Of a stretch of 40,543 nt of DNA, positions 2,825-36,655 are shown piece after piece. Location of the stretch: positions 1-40,543 of IMG/VR virus record IMGVR_UViG_3300012347_000612. The stretch is one strand, 5' to 3'. A model generated the notes under the pieces. That model was given only the letters and a program-made list of their open reading frames with translations. It did no database searches and was not told the origin of the DNA. The position numbers and the translations under genes are program-made. Position 1 is the stretch's first letter. Every line of letters begins with the position of its first letter. The stretch is from a virus (taxonomy: Duplodnaviria > Caudoviricetes).

Positions 2825-3181
2825 ATGACCATGAACCAAGCACCCACAGCCGGAGCCATCAAGCGGGCGAAAAAACAAAGGCGTTTGGATCACGCATGGA
2901 GTCTCACAGGTGGCAGGTGCGTCTATTGCAACTCCGAAACGCCCACCATCCTGCGCACAGTCGATCACTGCCTTCCCCGCTCTCACGGAGGATGGTCCAC
3001 AAGCTCCAATCTTCTCCCGGCCTGTTACCATTGCAACAATGCTCGTGGCACCACGTCCCCCGCTTCGCGTCTTGCGCATCCGCGGTGGACGACACTGGTG
3101 AAGCAGATGGAAGAGAACGCCGATGCGCTGGCACCGCCGCCCCAGCGGCTGGCCAGCAAGAAGGACGTTCCCGGCGGTTGA
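2825..3181 (+). CDS. HNH endonuclease
   Basis: CVYC...TVDHCLPRSHGG...NLLPACYHCNNARG; stop codon lies inside the attC-like site at 3112-3201. Confidence 0.88.
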   Translation: MTMNQAPTAGAIKRAKKQRRLDHAWSLTGGRCVYCNSETPTILRTVDHCLPRSHGGWSTSSNLLPACYHCNNARGTTSPASRLAHPRWTTLVKQMEENADALAPPPQRLASKKDVPGG

Positions 3182-3201
3182 CCAGCCGCGCCTTGTTCGA
3201 T
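3112..3201 (-). other. attC-like recombination site (head-operon cassette)
   Basis: Imperfect inverted repeat AACgccgatgcgctggcaccgccg...cggcggttgaccagccgcgccttGTT with extra unpaired bases on one arm; GTTcgattt (3195) is the reverse complement of aaatcgAAC (3544-3552). Confidence 0.75.
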
Positions 3202-3551
3202 TTCCCGAATTACCAACCGACTCCGATACCATGAATGACACCAACGCATCCGCCCTTGTGGGCAAGGCCATGAAGCAAAACGCGCAACTTCGCAACAAGC
3301 TGGAAAGCGTGCGCGGTAAGCTGCAAACCCACATCTCCGACATCAAGCGCGAGGTCGATCAAATCGACGCAGCCCTGAAGGTGGAATACACCGACTGGAT
3401 CGCCCTACTGAAATGGCAGGATCTGAAATGGGTGTGCATCGCCTGCGTGAACGTCCGCGACATCGACGACGATACGCCGGATGACTTCGACCTGGCGCTG
3501 CCGATCCCGTCGCCGGAGAGCCTTCCGGAGTGGAACGGTTGGTAAATCGAA
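3118..3551 (-). mobile_element. Gene cassette E (434 bp) at the second attI-like site
   Basis: Bounded by crossover triplets at 3116-3118 and 3550-3552; complementary R boxes; carries one ORF. Confidence 0.7.
3231..3545 (+). CDS. Hypothetical protein (cassette E cargo, coiled-coil N-terminus)
   Basis: ORF MNDTNASALVG...; the frame is also open from ATG 3123 inside the attC, so the start is uncertain. Confidence 0.7.
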   Translation: MNDTNASALVGKAMKQNAQLRNKLESVRGKLQTHISDIKREVDQIDAALKVEYTDWIALLKWQDLKWVCIACVNVRDIDDDTPDDFDLALPIPSPESLPEWNGW

Positions 3552-3584
3552 CAGCTTATTATCCCGACCAGACTGCGAATAAAT
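3546..3584 (-). other. Second (orphan) attI-like site
   Basis: 3550-3582 matches 34006-34038, which abuts the IntI start, at 29 of 33 nt. Confidence 0.7.
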
Positions 3585-3700
3585 TTCCCGGCAGCGAGTG
3601 CTGCCGGAAATCCCCTCCCGCGGGCGCGTCGCCCAGGTGGAGGCTGGAATCTACCTTCTGAGGGGTTGGATCCAGCCACACAGCGGGAGGGTTGCTTTAT

Positions 3701-3815
<115 letters not shown>

Positions 3816-7434: not shown

Positions 7435-8637
7435 ATGCCCACTCTTACCAGCACGCTCATTCTCAAGAAGACCCTCAAGGCCTATCGCACCTTGTTCCCC
7501 TTCATCAACAAGTTCAACTCGGACTTCACTTCCGAGCAACTCGTCCTCGGACAGACCGCCATCGCCCACATCCGCAGCTTGCCCACCGTCGCTAACTACG
7601 ACGCCACCACCGGCTATGCGAACGGAGCCACCAGCGCCCGCACGCTCCTCACGGACCTCCCGATTGTGGTCGATAGCCACAAACACGTCCCCGTCTATCT
7701 GGACCATGTGGATGCCATCTCCGACGAGAAGGAATCCTTCCCCGGCACCCTGGAAGATCAAGCCTACGTCCTCGGCAAGACCATGGTGGACAGCATCACC
7801 GCCAAGGCCACCACGGCCAACTTCAGCTACGGCACCACCGCCGCCACTGCGGATAGCGACCTCGACGTCATCGAGGCCATCACCACCCAGCTTAACGGAA
7901 ACGGTGCAGCTCCCCGCGGCCGTATCGGCCTGGTGAACTCCGCCGTCGCCCAGGCCATCGCCCTCGACACCCGCATCGGATCCAAGGACTACTACGGTCA
8001 ACTCACCGGAGCCGGTGGCTTGCGCATGTTCACCGGAGTCGGCGGCTTCGAGGCCATCTACGAATACCCCGGCCTCTCCAGCAACAACAAGGCCACCCAG
8101 ACCTTCACCGCGGCCACCACGGACATCTGCACGGCCACCGCCCACGGCTTCACCACCGGCGACCGCGTCCGCCTCACCAACTCCGGCGGCGCACTTCCTG
8201 CCGGGCTGGCAGCATCCACCGACTACTACGTCATCAAGCTCACTGCCGACACCTTCAAGCTCGCCACCAGCGACGCCCTGGCCACCGCAGGCACAGCGGT
8301 TGACGTTACCGGCACCGGCACCGGCACCCACTCCATCGTCGGCTACGAGAACGTCTCCGGACTCTTCTTCAACAGCGAGGCCATCGCCCTTTACACCGGC
8401 CTTCCTCGCCAGTCGCACGACACCGCAGCAGCCATGGGCATCCCGCAAACCGTCAAGATGGAAGCCCTCGCGGATCCCATCAACGGCTTCGCCCTCGCCC
8501 ACCTCTGCTGGATGCAGACCGGCACCGTGGATCTCTACTCCACCGTCACCGCCCTCTGGGGTTCCGCCCTCGGCCGCCAAGCCGGAGCCGCCGCCGCCCT
8601 CACCGACCGCTCCGCCGTCATCCTCCGCACGGCGTGA
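7435..8637 (+). CDS. Major capsid protein with an inserted beta-rich domain
   Basis: 400 aa; position after protease and scaffold; strong codon bias; followed by a small gene and a terminator. Confidence 0.75.
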   Translation: MPTLTSTLILKKTLKAYRTLFPFINKFNSDFTSEQLVLGQTAIAHIRSLPTVANYDATTGYANGATSARTLLTDLPIVVDSHKHVPVYLDHVDAISDEKESFPGTLEDQAYVLGKTMVDSITAKATTANFSYGTTAATADSDLDVIEAITTQLNGNGAAPRGRIGLVNSAVAQAIALDTRIGSKDYYGQLTGAGGLRMFTGVGGFEAIYEYPGLSSNNKATQTFTAATTDICTATAHGFTTGDRVRLTNSGGALPAGLAASTDYYVIKLTADTFKLATSDALATAGTAVDVTGTGTGTHSIVGYENVSGLFFNSEAIALYTGLPRQSHDTAAAMGIPQTVKMEALADPINGFALAHLCWMQTGTVDLYSTVTALWGSALGRQAGAAAALTDRSAVILRTA

Positions 8638-24638: not shown

Positions 24639-24718
24639 TATGCCTTCGCGCTTCTTCATTTTCTTCCTCTTCCTCTTCACTTCGACGTTCGATGTTCGAT
24701 GTTCGATGTTCGACGTTC
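24595..24718. repeat. TCGAAC heptamer inverted-repeat element at the lysis/integrase convergence
   Basis: Full copy; contains the stop codons of both converging ORFs. Confidence 0.9.
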
Positions 24719-25891
24719 CAGAAGTGCAAACCACTTCCGCCCTTCCCCGGGAGGCAACGGCCGCCGATAAGTCGAGCGAATGATCCCCGGCGAGTTCCCC
24801 GCCTCCTCCGCCACCTGGTCCATCGAGCCTGCCACCTGGAGCCGATAGGTGATGCCCGAGTGGCGCAGCACATTCGGCGGCCAAGTCAGCCCCGCCGCGC
24901 GCGCCAGCCCGGAAACCACCCCCTGCGCCGTGGACCGACAAATCCGTTTCGACTTCACCATCCGCCAATCCTCCTCCCGCGCCTGCGCCTCCCGCAACAT
25001 CCGCACCATCGCCGCCGGGATCGGCACCCAGCGCTCCCTGGACGTCTTCCCCGCCACCGCAGCCGTCACATGCAGCAGCCGCTGCTCCCACAGCACATCC
25101 GCCCATTTCAGCCGCCCACATTCCGATGGACGCAATCCCATCCATCCTCCCAGCAGTAGGAATGCCAAATGCTCCGGAGCCCCCTTCCTTACCGCCGTCA
25201 AGAGCACCTTCCCCTCCGCCGGCGAGAACACCACCGGCGCCTTGTCCGCCAGCCGTGGCCGCTTCATCGCCCGCGTCGGCAACGACCGCGCCTCCGGCCA
25301 CAGCCCCAGCACTTGGCACCGCCGGAAAAACGTCGTCCACCGCGCCATCCTGTTTCGCAGCGAACGCGCCGCCAGCCCCGGCAGCGAAATATGCTTCACC
25401 AGCTTTTCGTAAGTCATCTCGAGCAACGGAAAATCCGGATGCACCCGCCGCCAAGTCCGCAGCTCCTGGTGCAGATCCACCTTGTTCCGGCCATGCACCT
25501 CCAGCAGCACCATCTCCGCCGCCTCGTCCAGCGTCACATTCCGCACCGCCGGCGGCCCGTGCTTCATGAAAAACTTCGCCGCCTCCTCGATCCGCTCCAC
25601 ATCCCCCAGACACTCCGCCGCCCGCTCCACCGCCGCCAGCAGCCGCCCCGTGTCCGGATGCAGCCGCTCCAGCCACGCCAACCGCTCCATCCGCAGAGGC
25701 GTCACCCACTCTTTCCCCGTGGCCTGCTGCATTTCCCGGACTTTGCGCTTGGCGTAATCCCGCGCTTTTTCCACCGTCGCCCGAGTTGTCCGCATCACCT
25801 TCCCGTCCTCATGCCACTTCAGCGCACAGCACCCATTCGCCCGCGGATACAACCGAATCTCCGCGCCGCCATATTTCACGATTTCCACCAT
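24677..25891 (-). CDS. int: Prophage integrase (tyrosine recombinase)
   Basis: GLRPSE (R), AGKT (K), LRHS, AGNS...STY (Y); adjacent to attP. Confidence 0.92.
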   Translation of the reverse strand: MVEIVKYGGAEIRLYPRANGCCALKWHEDGKVMRTTRATVEKARDYAKRKVREMQQATGKEWVTPLRMERLAWLERLHPDTGRLLAAVERAAECLGDVERIEEAAKFFMKHGPPAVRNVTLDEAAEMVLLEVHGRNKVDLHQELRTWRRVHPDFPLLEMTYEKLVKHISLPGLAARSLRNRMARWTTFFRRCQVLGLWPEARSLPTRAMKRPRLADKAPVVFSPAEGKVLLTAVRKGAPEHLAFLLLGGWMGLRPSECGRLKWADVLWEQRLLHVTAAVAGKTSRERWVPIPAAMVRMLREAQAREEDWRMVKSKRICRSTAQGVVSGLARAAGLTWPPNVLRHSGITYRLQVAGSMDQVAEEAGNSPGIIRSTYRRPLPPGEGRKWFALLERRTSNIEHRTSK

Positions 25892-25910: not shown

Positions 25911-26090
25911 TTTACACCGCTTTACACCCAAAAAATCACAAATTTACAGGAAAACCGCTTTTTCCGCATTCATAACCCATTGATTTCCCGTCGCAGCAAA
26001 GGTAGTTTTCGGGTTCGAGTCCCACAGCCGCTATCTCGATTTACAACGACTTACGAAGGCAGTTAGGATTTTACACCCGATTTACACCCG
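25911..26090 (+). other. attP: tRNA 3'-end core (26011-26033), arm-type repeats and an IHF-like site
   Basis: gggttcgagtcccacagccgcta reads as T-arm plus acceptor strand; TTTACACC at 25911, 25921, 26070 and 26081; taacccattgatt (~25973) is the reverse complement of WATCAANNNNTTR. Confidence 0.8.
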
Positions 26091-26111
26091 ATTTTGAAAA
26101 GGGATGGCATG

Positions 26112-26144
26112 AAAAAACCCGCGCTCCGGGGTGGAGGCGGGTTT
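26112..26144 (-). terminator. Rho-independent terminator after the antirepressor
   Basis: aaaaaacccgcgctcc...ggaggcgggttt stem with an A-run on the + strand. Confidence 0.65.
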
Positions 26145-26169
26145 GGGGAGTGCGGCGTTTTGCCGGCGT

Positions 26170-26910
26170 TCAGGTGGGCTCGGCGCTGGCGAAGGCGGCG
26201 ATGGGGGGAAGCTGGTAGGAGATTTCCCGGCCGGGGATGCGGATGGCGCGGCCGGTGGAAATGGCGCGCTGCATGATCTTGCCCACGGTGGCGCGCTTGG
26301 AGGGATCGGTGCCTTTGCGGAGCTTGTGGCGCGGGGGCATGGCGTCGGCGAGCTGGAGGGCGGTGTAGGCGCTGTCTGGCTGCATGACGTCGAGTAGCTC
26401 CTGGACCTCCACATCGGTGATGGTGGGGTGGTAGCCAGTGGAGGAGCGAATCGGGATGGCGTGGAGCGGTGCTTGGGGCTGGCAGAGCTTCATGGCTCCC
26501 TTGGCGGCCATGTCCGGGGAGACGCCCATGCGGATCTGATCGGCAATGAGCCCGAGATAGGCCTGGTGCCCGGTATTGTAGCTGCCAGTGCGCCGGATCT
26601 GCGGGAGGACTTCGGAAGTAACCCAGCGGGTGAATTCCCGGGCAATGGGCTTGCGGCTCTGGAAAATGACGGCATAGAGTCCCGATTCGTTACAGAGGTT
26701 CATCGTCTGTTCGCGGCCCATGTTGTCGATGACCTTACTACTAGTAAGGTCATCCTGATAGATCCGTTCACAGACTCGGGTCGGGTTGCCCATCTCAAAA
26801 ACTTTGCACAGATCGGCGATAACGAACCAAGGGCCGTCTGAGCGCATTTCGGTGCGGATGAGGTTTTCTCCGAAGAGGAATGGAATCATGGTGGTGGTGT
26901 CGGTATTCAT
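26170..26910 (-). CDS. BRO-N domain antirepressor
   Basis: PWFVIADLCKVF, NESGLYAVIFQSRKPIAREFTRWVTSEVLPQIRRTGSY. Confidence 0.9.
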   Translation of the reverse strand: MNTDTTTMIPFLFGENLIRTEMRSDGPWFVIADLCKVFEMGNPTRVCERIYQDDLTSSKVIDNMGREQTMNLCNESGLYAVIFQSRKPIAREFTRWVTSEVLPQIRRTGSYNTGHQAYLGLIADQIRMGVSPDMAAKGAMKLCQPQAPLHAIPIRSSTGYHPTITDVEVQELLDVMQPDSAYTALQLADAMPPRHKLRKGTDPSKRATVGKIMQRAISTGRAIRIPGREISYQLPPIAAFASAEPT

Positions 26911-26953
26911 TTTGTTTGGTTGCTAGGATTCAGTTTTTGTGAAAGATGGGGGG

Positions 26954-27325
26954 ATGGAAGACTTGTCGGATTTCTGGTTTTTGTGCTTTCTGGGTTACGT
27001 GGTGAATGTGGCAGCAGCGTGGGCGGTGGGTAGTTCCAGGGGCAGGGGGGAGGCCGGTTTGCTCTGTGGCTTGGTCTTGCCAGGCATCGGGATGGTCGTG
27101 GCGTTGTTTTTACCGAAAGAGGGGCTGGCACTGGAGGAGCGGAAACCTGGCGCGCCTGTTAAGCGAGCGCGGGCGGAATACAAGAAGCCGGACCCAATCG
27201 AGGAATTTGAAGCGCGGGAGCAGGCAAGACGGGCGTTTGAGGAAGGGCCGGTGCATTTGCGCGGAAAGGTGCGGGAGCCGGTGGTGGTGCCTTTGCGGCG
27301 GGCGAAGATGAAGGAAGATGAGTGA
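26954..27325 (+). CDS. Membrane protein (two TM segments) in the immunity region
   Basis: Two hydrophobic segments around GSSRGRG; possible superinfection-exclusion role is inference only. Confidence 0.6.
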   Translation: MEDLSDFWFLCFLGYVVNVAAAWAVGSSRGRGEAGLLCGLVLPGIGMVVALFLPKEGLALEERKPGAPVKRARAEYKKPDPIEEFEAREQARRAFEEGPVHLRGKVREPVVVPLRRAKMKEDE

Positions 27326-27418
27326 TTTACTACGAGATCCATGGCGCATGGCGGGAGTGGCAGTAGATGCACTTGTGGAAGGGCTGGATGATAAGCGGCA
27401 GCTCGGGGGCTGGTGGGA

Positions 27419-27877
27419 TTACCGCAGGGGCTTTGACCTTCCGGAGGGATAGGTGCCGCTGCCGCGAGATGGCTTGTTCTCGCCGTCTCCATGATCTGCG
27501 GCGTAGGGGGGGAGAAGCTGGAGTTCGCGGCTGCGTGCCCATTCCTCGGCGGCGGCATTGAGGTGGTCCACGGCCCATGCGGAGGTGGTGGGGGCATCGC
27601 TGGCTTTGGCGGCGGCGTCCCAGAGAGCGTGCTTTTCCGGATCGACAAGGAGGGTGATGCGGTCTGGTAGATTTTCGGTAGGGGAAGCGGCTTCCGCGGC
27701 TCTTGCCCGGGCAATGGCATCCATGAAGGCGGTGAACATGCGCTTGGAGAGTTTCTTGCCCTCGGGGGCTAGGCAGTCCCGGACGGAGTAGTACGAGTAG
27801 CCGGATGCGTCGGCTAACCATTTGCGGTCTTTTTCGGCGGCGATGAGGGCCGCTTCGATTTGTTTTTTTGTGTCCAC
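27419..27877 (-). CDS. Putative phage repressor
   Basis: HTH-like DRKWLADASGYSYYSVRDCL; divergent from the early operon across three operator-like palindromes; GTG start at 27877. Confidence 0.65.
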   Translation of the reverse strand: MDTKKQIEAALIAAEKDRKWLADASGYSYYSVRDCLAPEGKKLSKRMFTAFMDAIARARAAEAASPTENLPDRITLLVDPEKHALWDAAAKASDAPTTSAWAVDHLNAAAEEWARSRELQLLPPYAADHGDGENKPSRGSGTYPSGRSKPLR

Positions 27878-27904
27878 AGGGGGATTTATACCACGGAAAG
27901 GGGC

Positions 27905-27977
27905 TAAAGAAAGAAAATTTCTGTTAAAACAGAAAAATGCTGTTGACGAGACAGCAGAAGTCTGTTTTTGTTCCGGC
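27905..27977. promoter_or_regulatory. Immunity switch: three ACAG-N7-CTGT operators and a rightward promoter
   Basis: Operators at 27910-27924 (one mismatch), 27929-27943 and 27951-27965; TTGACG at 27943, 29 nt before ATG 27978. Confidence 0.75.
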
Positions 27978-28169
27978 ATGCAAACGCAAGACGATGCCGA
28001 GCCCGCTCCGAGATCACTGCCGGAAATCCCGCTCGATGAGCTTTCCGCTACGACGAAGGATTACCTGCTGGCCCATGCGGTGGCGGGGACCTCGCCGGCG
28101 GAGTTGATCATCGGGGTGCTGGACAAGGCGGCGGCGAAGGCGGGCTTTGAACCGGACAAGGCGGCCTAG
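27978..28169 (+). CDS. Small early regulator (Cro position)
   Basis: 63 aa; first gene of the rightward operon; ends in DKAA. Confidence 0.6.
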   Translation: MQTQDDAEPAPRSLPEIPLDELSATTKDYLLAHAVAGTSPAELIIGVLDKAAAKAGFEPDKAA

Positions 28170-28204
28170 CAAAACCCCCAACGACAATTTCACCCGGACA
28201 AACA

Positions 28205-28642
28205 ATGAAACAGGAAAGTGTGTGTGCGATGAAAACGAGTCCAACGAGGAATGAAACGGCTCTTCCGGACAGAAGAGGGACGGCGGGGGGTGCCACGGCT
28301 GCGGTGGGTGCCGCGGCGGATTCTGAGGGTGCCCCCCGCCAACTCGCGGCGAACGTCGAACATCGAACATCGAACGTCGAACATCGAAGGGAAGAGAAGT
28401 TGGAGAAGGCTCTGGTGCGGCGTGCTGCGCGGGTGCGGATGGAACGGGCGGGGGTGCGGCTTTCGGTGCAGGATGGACTGCGGGTGGGCCGGCGGTGGAT
28501 GGCGCTGATGGATGCGGCGGTGAGAACGACCGGGCAGGATTTCGTTTCGGCCATGGCCTCGGGGCCGGTGATCTTTTTGGGAACATCGAACGTCGAACAT
28601 CGGACATCGAACGTCGAAGGAAGAGAAAGGAGCGCGGCATGA
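28205..28642 (+). CDS. Hypothetical protein containing two in-frame heptamer-repeat insertions
   Basis: NVEHRTSNVEHR segments at 28351 and 28581. Confidence 0.5.
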   Translation: MKQESVCAMKTSPTRNETALPDRRGTAGGATAAVGAAADSEGAPRQLAANVEHRTSNVEHRREEKLEKALVRRAARVRMERAGVRLSVQDGLRVGRRWMALMDAAVRTTGQDFVSAMASGPVIFLGTSNVEHRTSNVEGRERSAA

Positions 28643-28884
28643 GCCGGATGGTGAAGCGGGCGGAGGTGGCGCGGTTCCTGGGGAAGGACGCGAGCGAGAT
28701 CGACCGGATGATCGAACAGGACGGGATGCCGCACATGAGCCTGCCAGGGCCGACGAAGCCGAGCGTGAGGTTTTTCCTGCCGGACCTGCACGGCTGGCTG
28801 GTGAAGTTCAACCGGGGATGCGCGGGTTTTGCCCGGCTGGAGGAGTTCGAGCGGGCGTTCTGCGAGGCGCAGAAGAAGAGCTGA
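28639..28884 (+). CDS. Excisionase-like HTH protein
   Basis: KRAEVARFLGKDASEIDRMIEQDGMP...VRF..DLHGWL winged-HTH pattern. Confidence 0.7.
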   Translation: MSRMVKRAEVARFLGKDASEIDRMIEQDGMPHMSLPGPTKPSVRFFLPDLHGWLVKFNRGCAGFARLEEFERAFCEAQKKS

Positions 28885-28924
28885 GTGATTGAAGAAGATT
28901 CTACCTAACCAAAATAACAAAAAC

Positions 28925-29095
28925 ATGCAACACGATCCGATGATTTACATACTGGCGGCAGGGTGCCTTGGGGCGACTTTGGGATTCATGACTTGCGCGG
29001 TGCTCTCCAGCAGCCGGATCCGACGGGCGAATATGGAGGGGTATCTGGAGGCGGTCCGGTTCCAGAAGAGCATGGAGAAGGAGGTGGGGCTGTGA
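28925..29095 (+). CDS. Small single-TM hypothetical protein
   Basis: Hydrophobic N-terminal helix. Confidence 0.55.
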   Translation: MQHDPMIYILAAGCLGATLGFMTCAVLSSSRIRRANMEGYLEAVRFQKSMEKEVGL

Positions 29096-29397
29096 GTGTC
29101 TCATACCGGAGGACTCAGGTGCTGAAGCCGAAGAAGAACCGGGGCAGCGCGGGGAATGCGCGGAGCGGTTTTGCGGGGATGCCGCCGGCGGCTCTGGATA
29201 CGATAAATATGGAGCAGTTTTGCCGGGCCTGCGACCGGATGCTGGCGGAACATGTGCCGGGCTACCGGGTGTTCAACTTCGCAGGCAAGGACGTGACGCG
29301 GGAGATGATGGAAAAAGCACCGGAGAAGGTGCGGGAAGAGCGGGTGGTGACGCGGGTGTTTTGGAGAAGCAAGCAGATGAGGGAGTGCAGAGGGTAG
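29092..29397 (+). CDS. Hypothetical protein
   Basis: GTGA overlap with the previous gene; 101 aa. Confidence 0.55.
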   Translation: MSVSYRRTQVLKPKKNRGSAGNARSGFAGMPPAALDTINMEQFCRACDRMLAEHVPGYRVFNFAGKDVTREMMEKAPEKVREERVVTRVFWRSKQMRECRG

Positions 29398-29454
29398 GAA
29401 GATAACCGCAGAGACGCAAAGGACGCAAAGGAAACGCTGAGAAGAAAGAAGATT

Positions 29455-30111
29455 ATGAACGAAGTGAATCAAAGACAGTGGCCGTGCGCGTGCATCGACC
29501 TTGAGACTCTATCGACTTCCGCGGATGCGGTGGTGCTGGAGATGGGGGCGGTGATGTTTGATCCGGCGACGCTGGAGCTGGGGCCGGAGTATCATGCGGA
29601 GGTGGAGATGAGGGCGCCGGATAACCGGCTGCGGGGAATCGACGCGGGGACGATGGTGTGGTGGGCGGAGCGGGTGAAGGAGGGGCATGATATGCCGGGG
29701 GTGTATGGGGGGGGGAGTCTGTGGGGTGCTTTGCAAGGTCTTGCGGAGTTTATGGCAAGGCATGCGGACCCGGAGGAGGTGGAGATGTGGGCGTGGGGGA
29801 GTGACTTTGATTTCGGGATACTGCGGCATGCGCATGATGAGGCGCAGATGAAGCTGCCGTGGCGCTACTCGCGCCAATGCGATGCGCGGAGTTTTTGCGG
29901 GAAGCTGGGGATCAAGCGGGTGGGGCCGGTGACTCACCAGGCACTGGCGGACGCGAAGCAGGAAGCGCAGGCGGTGATGGGGGCGCTGTTCAAGCTGGAG
30001 GCGATGCGAACATCGAACATCGAACATCGAACATCGGACGTCGAAGGAAGAGAAGGAGAAGAGAATTCTTCGGCAGCGCGTGGTGAAGATCTAACCCCTG
30101 CGGTGTCATGA
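29455..30111 (+). CDS. DEDDh 3'-5' exonuclease (Rv2179c-like)
   Basis: IDLETL, WAWGSDFDFGIL, CDARS and HQALADA motifs. Confidence 0.88.
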   Translation: MNEVNQRQWPCACIDLETLSTSADAVVLEMGAVMFDPATLELGPEYHAEVEMRAPDNRLRGIDAGTMVWWAERVKEGHDMPGVYGGGSLWGALQGLAEFMARHADPEEVEMWAWGSDFDFGILRHAHDEAQMKLPWRYSRQCDARSFCGKLGIKRVGPVTHQALADAKQEAQAVMGALFKLEAMRTSNIEHRTSDVEGREGEENSSAARGEDLTPAVS

Positions 30112-30356
30112 GTGCGGGGGATGCTTACGTGCTTTTCGAGCTGTCCGGGGGGCCTGGCTGCGGGCTGCGGCTGGCGCTGCGGCAGCAGACGGCGGAGGTG
30201 TATCTGCTGCGCTTCCCGGTGCCGGGGCGGGCGGTGGCGAAGGAGGTGTGGAGCTACGCGCAAGCCCCGCGGTCTCTGCCGGATGGGGCGTGGGTGCTGG
30301 AGGCTTGCTGCCGGGTGGGGTATGAGAATTTTTACGAGGAGGACGTGCAGCCATGA
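30108..30356 (+). CDS. Hypothetical protein
   Basis: ATGA-coupled 82 aa ORF. Confidence 0.55.
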   Translation: MSAGDAYVLFELSGGPGCGLRLALRQQTAEVYLLRFPVPGRAVAKEVWSYAQAPRSLPDGAWVLEACCRVGYENFYEEDVQP

Positions 30357-30787
30357 CGACGCGGAATGTGCATGAGTTCTGTGTGGGGCTGTGGGAGGCG
30401 CGGGAGGAATCCCGCCTGCCAGGTGCGGCGGTGATTTCCCGGGGGCTTGCGCGTGCGGTGGCGGCGGATGTGGAGGCGAGTGAGGATTACGAGCCGCACG
30501 TGGACCTGCGGGTGGTGTGGGCACAGCGGATGGTGAAGGGGCGGAACTGGCAGGTGCCGGAGTGTCGGCCGGAGGCGAGCGAGGCGGTGGAGTCGGCGGC
30601 AGCTTATCTGCTGGGGAAACCGTTTGCGGAGCGGGTGCTTACGGGCAGGGATCTGGCGGCAGGGGAGGGAAGGGAACATCGAACATCGAACGTCGAACAT
30701 CGAACATCGAAGGAAGAGAAGGAAGAGCTTGGGCTTTTCTCTTCCCTCATGACCCATCAACCCATGACCCATCAACTTCTATCATGA
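30353..30787 (+). CDS. Hypothetical protein with a repeat-derived C-terminus
   Basis: ATGA-coupled; EHRTSNVEHRTS at 30675. Confidence 0.55.
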   Translation: MTTRNVHEFCVGLWEAREESRLPGAAVISRGLARAVAADVEASEDYEPHVDLRVVWAQRMVKGRNWQVPECRPEASEAVESAAAYLLGKPFAERVLTGRDLAAGEGREHRTSNVEHRTSKEEKEELGLFSSLMTHQPMTHQLLS

Positions 30788-31542
30788 GCGACGAGATGCA
30801 CATGGAGAGTGCCTGGCGGCACCGGGATATGACGGCCATCGAGCAGTGGCACGGGCCGCAGCCGGATGAGGCGCTGATGGAGGCGGAGGATCTATCCGGC
30901 GGCGTGGGTTTCCCGGCGCGGGTGGAGATGATGGACCGGCTGAATGTATATCTGTTCGCGGACGGGCGGCTGGGGGAGTGGGAGTTTGTGGCGGCGCGTG
31001 GGTATGACCTGATGGTGAATTTCGCGCCGAGCCTGCTGGTAGGGCGTGGACGACAGGAGATGGCGCGGCTGCTATGGGTGCGGCGGGAGCAACGGGGAGA
31101 GGCACTGGGGGAGTTCATGGAGTTCCTGCGGGGTATCCCGGGCGGGGCGGTAATTCTGGCGCGGCTGCTGGGTTTCATTTTCCCGGGGACGGGGAGCCGG
31201 TGGCTTTTCCGCGGGACGCAGCGGGCGTATATCATGGCGAGGGCGTGGCAGCCGTGGCTGGTGACGCAGGAGGGCCGGGAGCTTTCCTACGAGGATCTGG
31301 CAGAAGTTTTCGAGGGGCAGGAGCTAACGACGCCGAAGGCGCGGAACCGGGCGCGGAGCCGCTGGAGTGCGAGAGTGCAGGAGGTGCTGCGCAAGCCGAT
31401 AGAAGCAGCCGGCGGGACGGTGCGATTGCAGTTCTCGAAGAGCGCCGGGGCCAGGGAGCAGATGGCGGCAAGCGCGAGGGGGAACCAGAATAGGAAGACG
31501 AACGCCGGTGTCCTGGCACATGCCGACGAGAAAACTAACTGA
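30784..31542 (+). CDS. Hypothetical protein, possible HTH transcription regulator
   Basis: ELSYEDLAEVF segment; stop codon lies inside attC1. Confidence 0.55.
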   Translation: MSDEMHMESAWRHRDMTAIEQWHGPQPDEALMEAEDLSGGVGFPARVEMMDRLNVYLFADGRLGEWEFVAARGYDLMVNFAPSLLVGRGRQEMARLLWVRREQRGEALGEFMEFLRGIPGGAVILARLLGFIFPGTGSRWLFRGTQRAYIMARAWQPWLVTQEGRELSYEDLAEVFEGQELTTPKARNRARSRWSARVQEVLRKPIEAAGGTVRLQFSKSAGAREQMAASARGNQNRKTNAGVLAHADEKTN

Positions 31543-31618
31543 CCATGGGAAACGACTTCATACTCCAAAACGCCGACGAAGGGAGTGAAGGCATGTTGCC
31601 AACGACCTCTTGTTCTCT
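31497..31618 (-). other. attC-like site 1 (122 bp)
   Basis: AACgccggtgtcctggcacatgcc...ggcatgttgccaacgacctcttGTT imperfect inverted repeat. Confidence 0.78.
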
Positions 31619-32289
31619 GCCGTCATCTTCCGGCATCTCTTCCAAATTATCAACGCATCACGATACAACGATATGAAAACAAGAATTGAACTCATAGCCG
31701 CCGAGAATCATCTCGGAGAAGCCATGCAGGATGTGTGGAATGACCGCTGCCAAGACATCGGCGAAACGCCGACATGCTTTGAAGTCCGTGGACCGAAAAC
31801 GACCCGCATCATCGCTGACTTCGAGGGATCGGCCTTTGTGCGTGATATAATCGAGACACTGGAGGCTCGCGGATGCTCTCTCCATGTTCCGCCACCGAAG
31901 GGGAAAGTGGGCGAGCTTTTTGACGATATTGCCAAGGGGTTAGGGTTGCCAGAAACTCCCGAAGAAAAAATCGCCGCTCTTGAAGAGCAAATCAGGCACA
32001 TGATCCAGCACCGGGAGAGGCTCAAGAATGACATCGGCCGACTGGAATCCAGACTCCAGAAAATCAGTGACACGATGGAGAATATCGTCGTCACAGAAGG
32101 CGAGGACGCGGGAGTGGTGCTGCTATCTACCGAAGCGCCATGTCGCTATGAAGCCGGGAGCAACGTAGCGATCTACGGCCTGCCATACTTCTCGCCGCTC
32201 GGTGAATCACTCATGGAGGTATACCATCTCGCAAGCCAAAGAGAAGCTGCCGGAACCGCTGACGAGAAGCCGGACGGTCAGGCAGAGAA
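31503..32289 (-). mobile_element. Gene cassette D (787 bp)
   Basis: GTTctctgcc (31612) is the reverse complement of ggcagagAAC (32281-32290). Confidence 0.75.
31545..31676 (+). CDS. 43-aa leader ORF starting inside attC1
   Basis: ATG 2 nt after the upstream stop; its TGA overlaps the next ATG (ATGA). Not in the ORF track because of its size. Confidence 0.4.
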   Translation: MGNDFILQNADEGSEGMLPTTSCSLPSSSGISSKLSTHHDTTI

Positions 32290-32323
32290 CGCCGAGCCCA
32301 TCCACGGCGAGAAAAATGCCTGA
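31673..32323 (+). CDS. Hypothetical protein (cassette D cargo, central coiled coil)
   Basis: 216 aa; lacks the regional G-skew; stop codon inside attC2. Confidence 0.75.
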   Translation: MKTRIELIAAENHLGEAMQDVWNDRCQDIGETPTCFEVRGPKTTRIIADFEGSAFVRDIIETLEARGCSLHVPPPKGKVGELFDDIAKGLGLPETPEEKIAALEEQIRHMIQHRERLKNDIGRLESRLQKISDTMENIVVTEGEDAGVVLLSTEAPCRYEAGSNVAIYGLPYFSPLGESLMEVYHLASQREAAGTADEKPDGQAENAEPIHGEKNA

Positions 32324-32369
32324 ATACACAATCGAGCTTATCGCCGTTGGATGCGGCGATTTGTTCATC
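32284..32369 (-). other. attC-like site 2 (86 bp)
   Basis: AACgccgagcccatccacggcga...tcgccgttggatgcggcgatttGTT with two extra bases on one arm. Confidence 0.82.
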
Positions 32370-32653
32370 CTCTTTGAATTACCCCAAGATCCCAAAATGA
32401 AATACATCGTAACCAAGCGCGAAGACGGCACCGAAGAAATCTTCATCTTCCCTGACGCTGTGCATCACAAGGACATGGCCGAAGCTGTCCAATACCTCAA
32501 AGAACATGACCGACTGGTCTATGGGAAGTGGCGGTGGATCGAACGCGAACCGATCTCGGCTGGATTCGTGAAAGGTGGGAAGTGCGTGGGTAACAGCGAG
32601 TCTCTTGGACTCCGGTCACGCCCGCAAGACTCCGATCTGCTTCCTTGGATGAA
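32290..32653 (-). mobile_element. Gene cassette C (364 bp)
   Basis: GTTcatcc (32363) is the reverse complement of ggatgAAC (32647-32654). Confidence 0.78.
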
Positions 32654-32714
32654 CGCTAGGGCTATGCCGTCCGGTGACGGTGTGGCCGATGAATCGAAAC
32701 TGAAAAGCTTATGA
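32316..32714 (+). CDS. Hypothetical phage-type protein (cassette C cargo)
   Basis: Start at 32316 (inside attC2) or 32397 (MKYIV...IFP..VHH...SAGF...C.G.SESL); stop codon inside attC3. Confidence 0.75.
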   Translation: MPEYTIELIAVGCGDLFILFELPQDPKMKYIVTKREDGTEEIFIFPDAVHHKDMAEAVQYLKEHDRLVYGKWRWIEREPISAGFVKGGKCVGNSESLGLRSRPQDSDLLPWMNARAMPSGDGVADESKLKSL

Positions 32715-32742
32715 CGGATCGGACATCAGCCCCTTGTTCTCT
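32648..32742 (-). other. attC-like site 3 (95 bp)
   Basis: AACgctagggctatgccgtccg...cggatcggacatcagccccttGTT. Confidence 0.8.
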
Positions 32743-32746
32743 GCCG

Positions 32747-32926
32747 TCATCCTCCGGCATCTCTTTTCTTCGTCTTGCGACGTATGGCCGCGAGGAAAAG
32801 CGCCTGCTGCCATTCGGGGGGCGTGCGGCTACCATCAAGCCAGGCGTAAGCGGTGGCACGAGGACACCCAAGGGCGGCAACGATCTGGGCGGCGGAATAC
32901 TCAGCAAGCGATTCGGTGAAGGACAT
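32747..32926 (-). CDS. Small Cro/XRE-like HTH protein (59 aa)
   Basis: SAAQIVAALGCPRATAYAWLDGSRTPPEWQQ; stop codon directly before the attC3 R'' box. Confidence 0.7.
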   Translation of the reverse strand: MSFTESLAEYSAAQIVAALGCPRATAYAWLDGSRTPPEWQQALFLAAIRRKTKKRDAGG

Positions 32927-32950
32927 GGCTGGACAATACCCGAAAAAGAA

Positions 32951-33010
32951 ATGTCTGCAATGCATAAAATAAATCTCGACAAGTGTCCGCAATGCAGACA
33001 CTCTTTGCGC
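32951..33010. promoter_or_regulatory. Operators and leaderless promoter inside cassette B
   Basis: tgtctgcaatgcata (32952) and near-palindrome tgtccgcaatgcagaca (32984-33000); TCGACA-17 nt-CACTCT-6 nt-ATG. Confidence 0.6.
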
Positions 33011-33271
33011 ATGTCCAACACCAACGACCGCCTCAACAAACTCTTCACCGAACTCGAAGAAGCCACCAAGGCTTCCAATCACTACGAGTTCCAATCCCTC
33101 TACGGCACCGCCGTGAGCCGCGAGGCTTACGACGCAATCTATGAGGAAGCGCTTAAGGAAATCACCATCATCCAAAAGCGCATCATCCGCACCCTCCTAA
33201 AAGCTGGCGAGCTGGCCGAACTCATCGGCCATCTCGACGCGGGGACAATCAACCGCGCTCTCCTCAAATAA
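33011..33271 (+). CDS. Hypothetical helical protein (cassette B cargo)
   Basis: MSNTNDRLNKLF...; the frame is also open from ATG 32711. Confidence 0.7.
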   Translation: MSNTNDRLNKLFTELEEATKASNHYEFQSLYGTAVSREAYDAIYEEALKEITIIQKRIIRTLLKAGELAELIGHLDAGTINRALLK

Positions 33272-33311
33272 TCACAAGCGGGGTTCGATCCCCCGCCAAT
33301 CTGGCAAGCCA

Positions 33312-33620
33312 ATGAATCCTGAAATCGAAAAGATACTAAAACGCGCTCTGGTTGGGCTGAAGATGGGTGCCGATCTGGCATACGCGACTGAGACGACAGA
33401 CTCGCAAGCCGCGATGGCTGGTGCTGTCTGCGTGAAAATCGAATCCATAGAGGAAGAGGTGAAGGCGTTTCTTGGGCGCACACTGGAGACTCAGTATGTT
33501 CCCGGAAATCCCGGATGCACGATCTTCTTTAAAAGCCAAAGAGAAGCTGCCGGAACCGCTGACGAGAAGCGCGACCGCAGTGCAGAGAACGCCGCGCCTT
33601 CCCGCCCGGAACCATCTTGA
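33312..33620 (+). CDS. Hypothetical protein (cassette B cargo)
   Basis: 102 aa; stop codon inside attC4. Confidence 0.65.
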   Translation: MNPEIEKILKRALVGLKMGADLAYATETTDSQAAMAGAVCVKIESIEEEVKAFLGRTLETQYVPGNPGCTIFFKSQREAAGTADEKRDRSAENAAPSRPEPS

Positions 33621-33745
33621 GTGACTCAAACGCTGAACTACTATGACGAATCGAAAAACATATATGATTGAGATCGAAGCTGACGGCTCGATCACGGAGG
33701 AGTCGCGCAAGATGGTGCAGGGTCCGGAACGGCATCTTGTTGGGG
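33584..33745 (-). other. attC-like site 4 (162 bp, long loop)
   Basis: AACgccgcgccttcccgccc...gggtccggaacggcatcttGTT; longer than typical attC sites. Confidence 0.68.
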
Positions 33746-34007
33746 ACGTCGCGGAGCGAGTCACCGACAAGAGTGCCGTGGAGGTCGCGAAGCCGGGAAG
33801 GCGCGGCGTTGGAGAGATCGTGGGAGCGGAAGAACTACGTGGATACATTGCCCAGCAGGACAGCGAAGCGCGGTCGAGACGGAAAGAAGCCGAAGCGCAA
33901 GGTCTGCCGAAATGGGTGATAACGCATATCAACGGAGAGCTGACCGCGCTGCGAGAATTAGGTGAATGGCTGACCGAACGGACCGGCCAGCGGAGCGATC
34001 TCTCCAA
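33590..34007 (-). mobile_element. Gene cassette A (418 bp), attI-proximal
   Basis: GTTgggga (33739) versus tctccAAC (34001-34008): 7 of 8 complementary. Confidence 0.7.
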
Positions 34008-34038
34008 CAGCTTATTAACCCAACAGGACTGCGAATAA
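33643..34038 (+). CDS. Hypothetical protein (cassette A cargo)
   Basis: Starts inside attC4 and stops inside the attI-like site. Confidence 0.7.
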   Translation: MTNRKTYMIEIEADGSITEESRKMVQGPERHLVGDVAERVTDKSAVEVAKPGRRGVGEIVGAEELRGYIAQQDSEARSRRKEAEAQGLPKWVITHINGELTALRELGEWLTERTGQRSDLSNSLLTQQDCE

Positions 34039-34040
34039 TT
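34002..34040 (-). other. attI-like site adjacent to intI
   Basis: Minus strand ...gggttaataagctGTTggag, divergent from and abutting the intI start; duplicated at 3550-3582. Confidence 0.72.
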
Positions 34041-35039
34041 ATGAAAACACTGACTGATCGTGAGGCGATTGTGGGATTGAAGAATGCACAGCTGGAAAAG
34101 GGGCATTGCTTGAATACCCGGAAATCCTACCGGGGATGGGTGATGCGCTATCGGGAGGCGCGGACGAAGCGATTGGTGCGGGATCTGCAAGGATTCCTGA
34201 CCAGGCTGGCAACGGTGGAACGGGTGAACCCGAAGACGGTAAGGCAGGCGCTGAATGCTTTGAAATTCTATCATGAGAAGGTGCTCGGCATCGAGATCGC
34301 GCCGAAGTCTTTGACGGTGCCATCCATCAATCCACACCGGAACATTCCGGTGTGGCTGACGCATGACGAGGCGATGGACCTCATCGGGCGGATGGAGGGG
34401 GTGGCTCGGCTCCAGGCGGAGATGCTGTATGGGACGGGCGGGCGGATCACGGCGCTGCTGACGCTGCGGCTGAAGGATCTGGATTTGCAGAAGGGGCTGG
34501 TGACATTCCGCTTCGATAAGGGCGGTAAGTCCCGGACGGTGCGGCTGCCGCGGGCGGTGATGCACCGGCTCCAGACGCATGTGGCAACGGTGCGGATGCT
34601 ATGGGAGGGGGACAAGGCGCGGGGAATCATCTATCCGACGGCGGCGGAGGCGGCGATGAAGAAGCTGGGCCGGGCCCGCTTCGGGACTCTGCCGTTCTGC
34701 TGGCTCTTCCCGTCCCGGGATGTGCGGGGGGCGGAGCGGTGGCATGCGACGGATCACGCTCTATCGGACGGGCTGCGCGTGGCGGCGGAGGAGGCGGGGA
34801 TCATGAAACGGGTCTCGCCGCATGTGCTGCGGCACTCGAACGCGACGGCTCTGCTGGAACGCGGGGAGAATATCCGGACGATCCAGGAGCATCTGGGCCA
34901 CTCGAATGTGGAGACGACGGAAATCTACACGCATGCGAATGGCTCTCAGGGGGTGATCTCGCCGCTGGACTATCCGCCGCTGGCGGTGCCGCGGGGAGTT
35001 TCTAACCTGGTGGCATTCGAGGGGAGGGCGAGCGCATGA
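34041..35039 (+). CDS. intI: Integron integrase-like tyrosine recombinase
   Basis: FLTRLATVERVNPKTVRQALNAL, IPVWLT..E, LYGTGGR, KGGKSR, IntI-type insertion (WEGDKARG...CWLFPS), HVLRHS, IRTIQEHLGH..VETTEIYTH. Confidence 0.9.
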   Translation: MKTLTDREAIVGLKNAQLEKGHCLNTRKSYRGWVMRYREARTKRLVRDLQGFLTRLATVERVNPKTVRQALNALKFYHEKVLGIEIAPKSLTVPSINPHRNIPVWLTHDEAMDLIGRMEGVARLQAEMLYGTGGRITALLTLRLKDLDLQKGLVTFRFDKGGKSRTVRLPRAVMHRLQTHVATVRMLWEGDKARGIIYPTAAEAAMKKLGRARFGTLPFCWLFPSRDVRGAERWHATDHALSDGLRVAAEEAGIMKRVSPHVLRHSNATALLERGENIRTIQEHLGHSNVETTEIYTHANGSQGVISPLDYPPLAVPRGVSNLVAFEGRASA

Positions 35040-35239
35040 GTGGCACGGAATGTCATGCGATGTGGCACGCGCTGAATGATGCGGTGGGGGCGGTGATCGA
35101 CGCGCGGCGGGCGATGACGCCGGAGCATGAGCGGGTGAAGCTGCGCACTGCGCTGCTGGAACTGGCGAAGGCGAAACGGATGATCGAGAAGCGTTTGCTG
35201 GAGAGCAGGGAGGTAAATGCTGAGAAGCTGAAAAGCTGA
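35036..35239 (+). CDS. Hypothetical protein
   Basis: ATGA-coupled to intI; ends in a (GCTGAAA)n run. Confidence 0.6.
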   Translation: MSGTECHAMWHALNDAVGAVIDARRAMTPEHERVKLRTALLELAKAKRMIEKRLLESREVNAEKLKS

Positions 35240-35308
35240 AAGCTGAAAGCTGAAATGAAGATTTTGAAGAGTGAGAGAAACTAACCAAACCATAGAAAAC
35301 GAAAAACG

Positions 35309-36655
<1,347 letters not shown>

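Follow-up and report, generated by a model that had tools for sequence, protein, structure and literature searches.

An integron layout with mostly inverted cassette genes in a tailed phage, a likely shuffler of the phage's own genes

The integron locus and its surroundings

The window analysed here (the whole 40,543-nucleotide stretch of viral DNA) contains the hallmarks of a tailed phage, namely terminase, portal, head protease, a separate phage integrase and an antirepressor, and the host would be a Verrucomicrobium. No terminal repeat was found in the contig. The features relevant to the integron are the following, with the cassettes lettered A to D with increasing distance from the main attI.

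2825 to 3181, plus strand: HNH endonuclease ORF beside the second attI, running into its attC (HNH_5, E 3.9e-9)
3116 to 3549, minus strand: cassette at the second attI, with attC 3116-3197 (score 13.5) and a plus-strand ORF 3231-3545; its ends match over 9 bases
3550 to 3584, minus strand: second attI, lying between terL and portal and lacking an integrase; it shares 30 of its 35 bases with the main attI
24677 to 25891, minus strand: prophage integrase, distinct from IntI and given for context (phrog_1, E 2.7e-21)
30784 to 31542, plus strand: backbone ORF bordering the far end of the array, with its stop codon within attC1
31501 to 32287, minus strand: cassette D, farthest from attI, with attC1 31501-31614 (from the detector) and a plus-strand ORF 31673-32323
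32288 to 32651, minus strand: cassette C, with attC2 32288-32365 and a plus-strand ORF 32316/32397-32714 (phrog_3988, unknown function, E 1.8e-10)
32652 to 33587, minus strand: cassette B, with attC3 32652-32738, a minus-strand HTH-like ORF 32747-32926 and plus-strand ORFs 32951/33011-33271 and 33312-33620 (detector and ORFs)
33588 to 34005, minus strand: cassette A, nearest attI, with attC4 33588-33741 and a plus-strand ORF 33643/33664-34038 whose stop lies inside attI
33794 to 33820, plus strand: perfect 27-base inverted copy of the predicted circle junction of cassette A, forming a rival hairpin with 33588-33604
34006 to 34040, minus strand: attI, crossover triplet 34006-34008, divergent from intI (motif and variation in relatives)
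34041 to 35039, plus strand: intI, intact divergent integron integrase of 332 aa (TIGR02249, VchIntIA match, six catalytic residues)

None of the four cassettes of the array was found whole in another locus. The ORF of cassette A had no match in family searches, and an Atlas search with its protein gave a best score of 0.75 and no lead, while the ORF of cassette D has five partial homologues (56-88% identity). Cassette B is mixed in orientation because of its conserved minus-strand gene; its small HTH-like ORF matches HTH_23 at E 3.6e-4, under the cut-off of that family. Cassettes B and D have their left end (36 bases) and their right end (58 bases) in common, and other phages also have these ends around different genes. 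The 27-base inverted copy was considered as a unique relic of a cassette circle, an idea weakened by the presence of the same composite in other contigs (those of read run X1, share 0.05, which belong to relatives); a search for the exact pattern in viral contigs gave zero matches.

The array had been described as part of an early operon, which the identity of the neighbouring genes would suggest, and in two relatives it adjoins a Mu-like head gene, not early-type neighbours. A promoter scan of positions 26000-36000 was uninformative (1 site vs. 2.5 expected). A Verrucomicrobia LexA motif, used without a positive control, was absent from the window and present upstream of intI in 2 of 29 phage regions and 0 of 38 host regions.

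The integrase

The preliminary description recognized an intact IntI-type recombinase, distinct from the prophage integrase, and both points were borne out. All the catalytic residues are present (R135, K160, H261, R264, H287 and Y296 align with IntI1), and no fewer than 36 of the 37 members of the clade described below retain each of them. The protein gives 105.6 bits with the tyrosine recombinase family PF00589. Among 11 families TIGR02249 is its top match at 226.3 bits, missing the cut-off of 265, with XerD (125.5 bits) and XerC (107.9 bits) far under the cut-offs of both models. The prophage integrase is a separate gene that reaches just 27.6 bits with TIGR02249. Clustering with XerC/D or phage Int had been set beforehand as one part of the refuting outcome; the closest solved structure in a PDB search was VchIntIA (E 3e-41), not Xer. 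The model superposes on 2a3v with a Z of 25.5 (302 aligned, rmsd 4.4), and in the comparison of folds VchIntIA tops the list by ca. 6 Z.

The IntI-specific insertion is present by length, and the alignment with IntI1 and VchIntIA runs across it. The spacing from the catalytic K to the H measures 101 residues; in the three IntIs taken as reference it is 105-107, and in four proteins of Xer type 65-84. As a stand-in for intI_Cterm we used a 57-position profile built from 33 bacterial IntIs, which is not IntegronFinder's own; it gave 8.3 bits (E 0.11) with the phage protein, 61-77 bits with five held-out IntIs and no match with 7 outgroups. It is plausible that IntegronFinder's real intI_Cterm profile would miss the phage IntI, and weak IntI-profile scores may explain why surveys contain few phage integrons.

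attI and attC sites

The divergent attI-like site reported at the intI start was recovered 35 bases before the gene, and relatives are conserved up to the AAC and variable from there on. The motif lies 28-49 bases upstream of intI in 41 relatives; across 42 loci, 37 different 20-mers follow the AAC and the platform side is conserved. Where 1 kb or more of sequence precedes attI, nearly all the loci (24/25) carry an attC of the same polarity. When the window was searched with the attI matrix, the sole extra match was 3550-3584, ca. 30 kb from the main attI. Integrase-less attI sites in viral contigs numbered 13 distinct ones among 27 matches, 7 of them with attC and matched ends. The second attI and the fifth attC (3116-3584) are absent from the preliminary description.

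The four attC sites of the array lie where they had been reported, their cores being at most 4 bases off. All have R boxes, an unpaired spacer, extra bases on one arm and a single shared polarity (the rules for spacer and position are taken in part from PMC5027507). The detector found 4 sites in 31001-34040 (mean 0.02 and maximum 1 in 200 Markov resamples) and 5 sites with a score of at least 11 in the entire window (mean 0.15 in 40 resamples). The top strand of attC and attI is the minus strand at all sites, none of the four scores in the reverse polarity, and the upstream attC of relatives are 111 of the array polarity vs. 3 opposite. The bottom strands published for TJE1 were called correctly. 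P12002L was not scored because the detector is noisy in this AT-rich genome at the lowered threshold (28 matches).

Folding of the bottom strands, which had been proposed as a check, gave little support in terms of energy: attC2 had z of -3.2/-2.5, partly due to other hairpins, and the remaining three ranged from -1.4 to +0.3. Being mostly no better than shuffles, plain folding energy was dropped as proof of attC in favour of a geometry test, and it is the arm geometry that supports the sites; energy adds little. For attC4, the most stable fold in context beats the canonical one by ca. 13 kcal/mol. The complementary R-box pairs are as first described in three cassettes, and the attI-proximal pair is matched at 7 of 8 bases; this last cassette has a second, perfect 13-base R-box partner at 33808-33820. 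Polarity cannot be read from R-box complementarity alone. Written in the published style, the four sets of R boxes depart from GTTRRRY / RYYYAAC, with GTT/AAC alone fixed, a departure shared by the cassettes of host Verrucomicrobia.

Cassette movement and gene orientation

When relatives were compared at the junctions, as the preliminary description had recommended, the variation fell exactly on the AAC. Two loci whose intI are 99.9% identical (L011 and L012) have in common a 744-base cassette at 100% identity with AAC breakpoints; it is the second one from attI in one locus and sits deep within the other. Another pair (L010 and L034) has identical intI and sequences that differ from attI onward, and L018 contains one 467-base cassette twice. 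In all these cases the breakpoints are at AAC, with few shared bases, and what moves is an attC together with the gene on its right-hand side. Over 100 cassettes, the ends agree at 4.79 of 7 bases, vs. 2.24 (maximum 2.67) in 2000 permutations. Gain, loss or reordering was seen in relatives, not within this genome; such changes support the original proposal that the phage shuffles its own accessory genes with an integron, which is likely here as well.

Co-orientation of the cassette genes with attI/attC was not found, the genes mostly reading towards intI. Out of 94 phage cassettes, 60 are inverted, 5 normal and 29 unclear (not assignable by ORF cover), whereas in the host integrons used as detector control the gene direction was normal (21 normal, 4 unclear and 0 inverted out of 25 cassettes). 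PHROG matches were obtained for 31 of 112 plus-strand ORFs and, on the minus strand, for 3 of 87; methyltransferases account for 17 of these matches, and DNA methyltransferases are the commonest named cargo of the clade. In 14 of the 31 family-supported genes the stop codon is supplied from past the junction. When attC-flanked genes were searched for occurrences in both directions, 76 pairs had the same and 2 the opposite orientation; the latter do not prove flipping because both are distant HTH matches. The inverted cassette genes were overlooked in the earlier account of the locus.

A phage-linked clade

In a quick tree 37 of 41 candidate integrases form one group (SH-aLRT 100), and all 12 clade rows were grouped at 100/99 in later trees. 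The quick tree nests the clade beside Verrucomicrobia IntIs at 95; the LG+G4 tree makes it sister to all IntIs, between Xer and bacterial IntIs, and split from Xer at 99/96; a mixture-model tree joins it to three Xer-type rows at 38/14 (root AU p 0.34). The rooting is unstable across the trees, which do not agree on a position of the clade within the bacterial IntIs or as their sister. It has a long stem, the 42 host IntIs that were tested all fall outside it, and its loci sit beside lambda-like, Mu-like and other head genes. Together these integrases make up a single phage-linked clade, and its phages are likely those of Verrucomicrobia. One member (L059), which is broken, is found on a chromosomal contig. 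No clade member above 40% identity was found among 50,697 phage records. The virus Rctr41k has a bacterial-type insertion, and the detector finds no attC upstream. Of 251 Verrucomicrobia genomes, 80 score above the cut-off of TIGR02249. The attC arms of hosts and phages resemble each other, with 88.6% identity in one pair of a phage and a host attC.

Interpretation

We read the locus as a full integron layout in a tailed phage, with cassette genes mostly opposite to the bacterial norm and likely serving as the phage's own gene shuffler, and we give this reading a probability of roughly 0.85. According to PMC5027507, IntI recombines the folded bottom strand of attC at the AAC, and circles are excised and inserted at attI. 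Judging from the sequence, IntI would be active in this genome, and the cassette genes and intI would be read within the rightward phage transcript and not from an integron Pc. In that case a new cassette would take the last place in the series of cassette genes, directly ahead of intI, with shuffling coupled to phage gene expression. A single IntI may also serve the second attI in trans, and the main benefit could be the swapping of DNA-modification and regulatory genes.

The locus might instead have true integron ancestry and be a frozen copy, its content changing by ordinary recombination between shared cassette ends like that of other phage accessory genes. This is suggested by the ends of cassettes B and D, found in other phages around different genes, and by the rival hairpin of attC4; circles and empty sites were not observed for this genome. 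However, the rearranged relatives break at AAC with few shared bases, intI is intact and the clade retains its catalytic residues, so that we consider it unlikely. Even less probable is that a prophage passively acquired part of an integron from a host chromosome, the situation of the Vibrio and Shewanella phages in PMC9892861. The frequency of integrons in Verrucomicrobia, the similar attC arms and the clade member on a chromosomal contig would agree with such an origin, whereas the long stem with no host IntI inside, the cargo matching phage families, the inverted genes and the broken state of the chromosomal member argue against it.

Since intI and the genes are on one strand, and R-box complementarity is identical in either direction, the plus-strand genes and attC could be normal and intI an "inverted integrase" at the array end, as in some Treponema (PMC4889954). 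We give this almost no credence: none of the sites scores that way, the upstream sites in relatives are overwhelmingly of the other polarity, attI lies between array and intI with the variable DNA on the array side, and attC is on the left of the moved unit. It is just as hard to believe in a tyrosine recombinase of Xer-like or another type, not an IntI, that acts on double-stranded sites. The sub-threshold TIGR02249 score, the weak insertion profile and the positions of the clade in the LG+G4 and mixture-model trees point that way; they are countered by a TIGR02249 score well above those of XerD and XerC, by the IntI-like length of the insertion and its alignment with IntI1, by VchIntIA heading the fold list and by the attC-type unpaired bases in the sites.

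Known integrons and significance

The proposed phage integron shares with canonical ones (class 1, and chromosomal ones such as those of Vibrio; PMC4889954 and PMC5027507) an IntI-type recombinase, a divergent attI, unpaired attC bases on one arm, the AAC crossover and matched cassette ends. It differs in that the genes mostly face intI and often end past the junction, no Pc was found in the phage locus, the crossover is very close to the intI start, the insertion is shorter and diverged, and there is an extra, integrase-less attI. Wrong-way cassettes are described as unexpressed in PMC5027507.

Phage-borne integrons and CALINs, as host-derived pieces, were reported by Qi et al. 2023 (PMC9892861), including three complete integrons, all host-type (Vibrio, class 1, Shewanella), and attC sites of this form recombined by IntI1. 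Those phages have integron parts and methyltransferase cargo, as here; the array of TJE1 is in normal orientation, unlike the inverted one described here. Another of them, ctTUS972, may hide an inverted layout, as seen at a low threshold with sites that are possibly not theirs. Verrucomicrobia chromosomal integrons have a similar attC arm consensus and non-RRRY cores, and their IntIs are the nearest in one of three trees, although these exceed the TIGR02249 cut-off, unlike the phage IntI, and the host cassettes contain no inverted genes. In the Treponema inverted-integrase integrons (PMC4889954) intI and cassette genes are also on one strand, but there intI follows the attC orientation, whereas in the phage intI is normal with respect to attC and the genes are flipped. 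In the literature searched, mainly outside subscription journals, we found no paper on phage integrons with inverted genes.

Integrons are seen as bacterial tools; in this phage-linked clade the polarity of recombination is retained and the genes are flipped. Near-identical phages with moved cassettes indicate site-specific swapping of methyltransferases and other accessory genes. Tentatively, and at odds that we would place below even, Verrucomicrobia phages may have an integron lineage of their own, in which one IntI serves several docking sites in different parts of the genome, cassettes consist of phage genes that face the phage transcript and are framed by reusable ends bearing the attC, cassettes are exchanged in both directions between phage and host integrons, and the integrase is missed by standard searches. 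Such two-way passage, if true, would make these phages a birthplace of new cassettes. A handle on cassette origin is provided by the same ends occurring around different genes and by a host-type cassette found within a phage array.

Integron structure and genomic setting

We estimate a probability of about 0.85 that this locus works as an integron; it has most of the defining features. It falls short of the TIGR02249 cut-off and departs both from the RRRY consensus and from the rule of gene direction, and is therefore classed as a variant integron and not a canonical one. The preliminary description had placed an integron in a phage genome, and this is borne out by the attC geometry, the conserved attI and the movement of cassettes at AAC in relatives. 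Family searches identified terminase, portal, head protease and antirepressor genes in the window, a virus record of 40,543 bases, together with a phage integrase (24677-25891). The elements discussed are the following (cassettes A to D run from attI-proximal to attI-distal):

3550-3584, second attI, between terL and portal, 30 of 35 bases identical to the main attI, without an integrase
from ca. 28.9 kb on, plus strand, exonuclease, array, intI, ParB-like gene and primase-like gene (long ORFs with family matches)
31501-32287, cassette D (attC1)
32288-32651, cassette C (attC2)
32652-33587, cassette B (attC3)
33588-34005, cassette A (attC4)
34006-34040, minus strand, main attI, crossover at AAC
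34041-35039, plus strand, intI
31606-31641, 32730-32765, 32233-32298 and 33533-33598, shared end modules, also in loci L130-L138

The array had been assigned to a phage early operon; it does lie in a plus-strand run of phage genes, but "early" is read from these neighbours. Its base composition (GC 0.55, skew 0.02) differs from that of the flanks (GC 0.63-0.65, skew 0.33-0.36). In relatives the flanks carry terminase, portal, capsid, Mu-like head genes or a head-tail connector, which shows that the system spans unlike phages and is not always found in an early region. The arrays L007:7988-9958 and L031:4058-7949 lie downstream of a Mu-like head gene, outside the early region. GC skew in the window turns from negative to positive at ca. 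26000, most long ORFs being on the plus strand on either side. Short arrays of 7-base units followed by a purine-rich tail occur at 28346-28400, 28576-28630, 30003-30057, 30669-30723 and 36313-36367, and similar 7-base-unit arrays at 3700-3815; the dispersed set is partly within ORFs and partly inverted.

Identity and phylogeny of the integrase

The intI product scored 226 bits with TIGR02249, below the cut-off of 265 (XerD 126, XerC 108). VchIntIA was the best solved match both by sequence (E 3e-41) and by predicted fold (Z 25.5, 302 aligned, rmsd 4.4, from a model with pLDDT 87.8), XerA coming second in the latter (Z 19.7). All six catalytic residues are present, each retained in at least 36 of the 37 members of the phage-linked clade to which this integrase belongs. 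Judged from its sequence, the integron-specific insertion described earlier is present by length (a spacing of 101, vs. 105-107 in reference IntIs and 65-84 in four Xer-type proteins) but diverged, scoring 8.3 bits on a stand-in for intI_Cterm (57 positions, built from 33 bacterial IntIs) with which five held-out IntIs reached 61-77 bits and seven outgroups gave no match. Homologues were 61-100% identical among the matches listed (at least 120), and the best match among 50,697 phage records was IntI1, at 39%.

A quick tree of 94 proteins gathered 37 of 41 candidates in one clade (SH-aLRT 100) adjoining some Verrucomicrobia IntIs (support 95), and all 12 clade members stayed together in the careful trees of 39 rows (100/99). 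With LG+G4 the clade was sister to all other IntIs and split from Xer at 99/96; the mixture-model tree had no fixed root, and grouping with the near Verrucomicrobia IntIs gave an AU p of 0.34. The phylogeny proposed as a check thus yields a clade that is firm and a place that is not. The more distant IntIs of L055 and L056 (31-33%) fall outside the clade, and these loci have an attI-like site and short attC sites of 53-64 bases.

attI and attC sites

The AAC-initial attI motif stands 35 bases upstream of the intI start codon in the window and 28-49 bases upstream in 41 relatives, a set restricted to uncut loci with the motif. Beyond AAC the DNA is variable, with 37 different 20-mers among 42 loci and a mean information of 0.31 bits vs. 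1.13 on the intI side, a value inflated because the motif served as anchor. The divergent attI reported next to the intI start is thereby upheld. A same-polarity attC was present in 24 of the 25 loci whose upstream DNA reached 1 kb or more, and upstream sites were oriented as in the window in 111 cases vs. 3 opposite (all loci of at least 37% identity, duplicates included). Downstream of intI, L001, L009, L010, L019 and L021 each have a single same-polarity attC, with no attI motif within 2.5 kb.

The second attI heads one cassette with matched ends (region 3116-3584) and might be served in trans; an HNH gene reads into the attC of this cassette. Scanning viral contigs for the attI pattern turned up 27 matches in 25 loci, 8 before intI and 19 without it; 13 integrase-less sites were distinct, seven of them with attC and matched ends.

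Our attC detector scores arm geometry (AAC, spacer, three pairs, extra base, stem, second extra base, GTT) by rules drawn partly from general knowledge and partly from portions of PMC5027507. All four sites of the preliminary description were recovered, the bottom strand being the plus strand in each case, and a fifth was found at 3116-3197; the opposite-polarity scan returned none of the four. Chance would give 0.02 sites in the array region (200 resamples) and, at score 11, 0.15 in the whole window (40 resamples) vs. 5 observed. As controls, the TJE1 sites were recovered with the bottom strands tested in PMC9892861, and host integrons gave the normal gene direction. Folding had been suggested as a further check; energy on its own lends little support, and it is the geometry that carries the sites.

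Cassette movement

Beyond GTT, the ends of a cassette agree at 4.79 of 7 bases, vs. 2.24 for permuted partners (maximum 2.67; 2000 permutations, 100 distinct cassettes). The loci L011 and L012, whose intI genes are 99.9% identical, share a 744-base methyltransferase cassette (100% identical). It is the second one counted from attI in L011 but lies deep in L012, interrupting a block unbroken in L011, with breakpoints at AAC. The moved unit has its attC at the left which, with the AAC breakpoints, fixes the polarity independently. L010 and L034 have identical intI genes and diverge no more than 5 bases from the AAC of attI, and L018 holds two copies of the same 467-base cassette. Variation at AAC junctions, expected if cassettes move, was therefore found in these relatives; none of the window's own cassettes was found whole in another locus.

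Gene direction and expression

By ORF cover, the gene is inverted (opposite to attI/attC polarity) in 60 of 94 cassettes, unclear in 29 and normal, as in bacterial integrons, in five, a count that leaves out six from L059, a chromosomal locus (4 normal, 2 unclear). Host integrons had 21 of 25 cassettes normal, 4 unclear and none inverted (7 of 18 loci yielded cassettes). PHROG matches were found for 31 of 112 plus-strand ORFs vs. 3 of 87 minus-strand ORFs, the plus-strand set being 112 of 145 candidates, those dropped being mostly overlapping second frames; 17 matches were DNA methyltransferases, and others were Mom-like, PAPS-reductase-like or regulators. In the window, cassette C has a plus-strand family match and D has plus-strand homologues, A gives no support for gene direction, and B, which carries a small, conserved HTH-like gene on the minus strand, is mixed.

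Fourteen of the 31 family-supported genes stop past the AAC junction, so that the gene tail depends on the neighbouring cassette. As only 35 bases separate the crossover from the start codon, intI is likely to share a transcript with the cassette genes, on which a newly inserted cassette would, by the geometry of the array, be last and not first.

Hosts and other phages

Close matches among 185,579 genomes were three, all Verrucomicrobia assemblies. L059, whose contig also bears purA and carA, has a broken clade-type intI; its attI heads normal-direction cassettes, the attC sites of which share 89-93% identity with those of a second integron of that contig. This contig (L059/L105/L108; G001 contig C30) is an Akkermansiaceae chromosomal one that carries the broken intI and a separate intact integron. 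Within the phage array of L012, the cassette at 7813-8497 is host-type; its ORF runs in the normal direction, and its attC has 88.6% identity to one from a host.

In PMC9892861, 10,705 phages yielded 3 complete integrons, all host-type, 1 lone integrase and 17 CALINs. Literature searches turned up no account of the clade or its layout; passages of PMC5027507, PMC4889954, PMC13323075, PMC8618304 and 10.64898/2026.09.14.751636 were consulted alongside PMC9892861, whose figures and Dryad annotation may bear on CALIN gene direction. One phage of that last study, ctTUS972 (L166, MW202573), has attC-like sites at 905-975, 2073-2128 and 3674-3734 in an inverted layout, and these low-threshold candidates count against full novelty of the layout.

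Shared ends and a composite site

Cassettes B and D have end modules, 36 and 58 bases long, in common with each other and with cassettes of other phages that hold different genes, which may be a hint of how cassettes are constructed. In modelled circles the shared ends lengthen the stem (21-28 flank pairs vs. 7-17 in place). The predicted circle junction of cassette A is repeated within the cassette as a perfect inverted copy of 27 bases, because of which the canonical fold of attC4 is ca. 13 kcal/mol worse than the best. The composite site (33588-33823) encloses attC4 in a perfect 17-base outer inverted repeat, extended to 27 bases in the circle, and was seen again, with other middles, in contigs of X1, a sequencing run with relatives' contigs.
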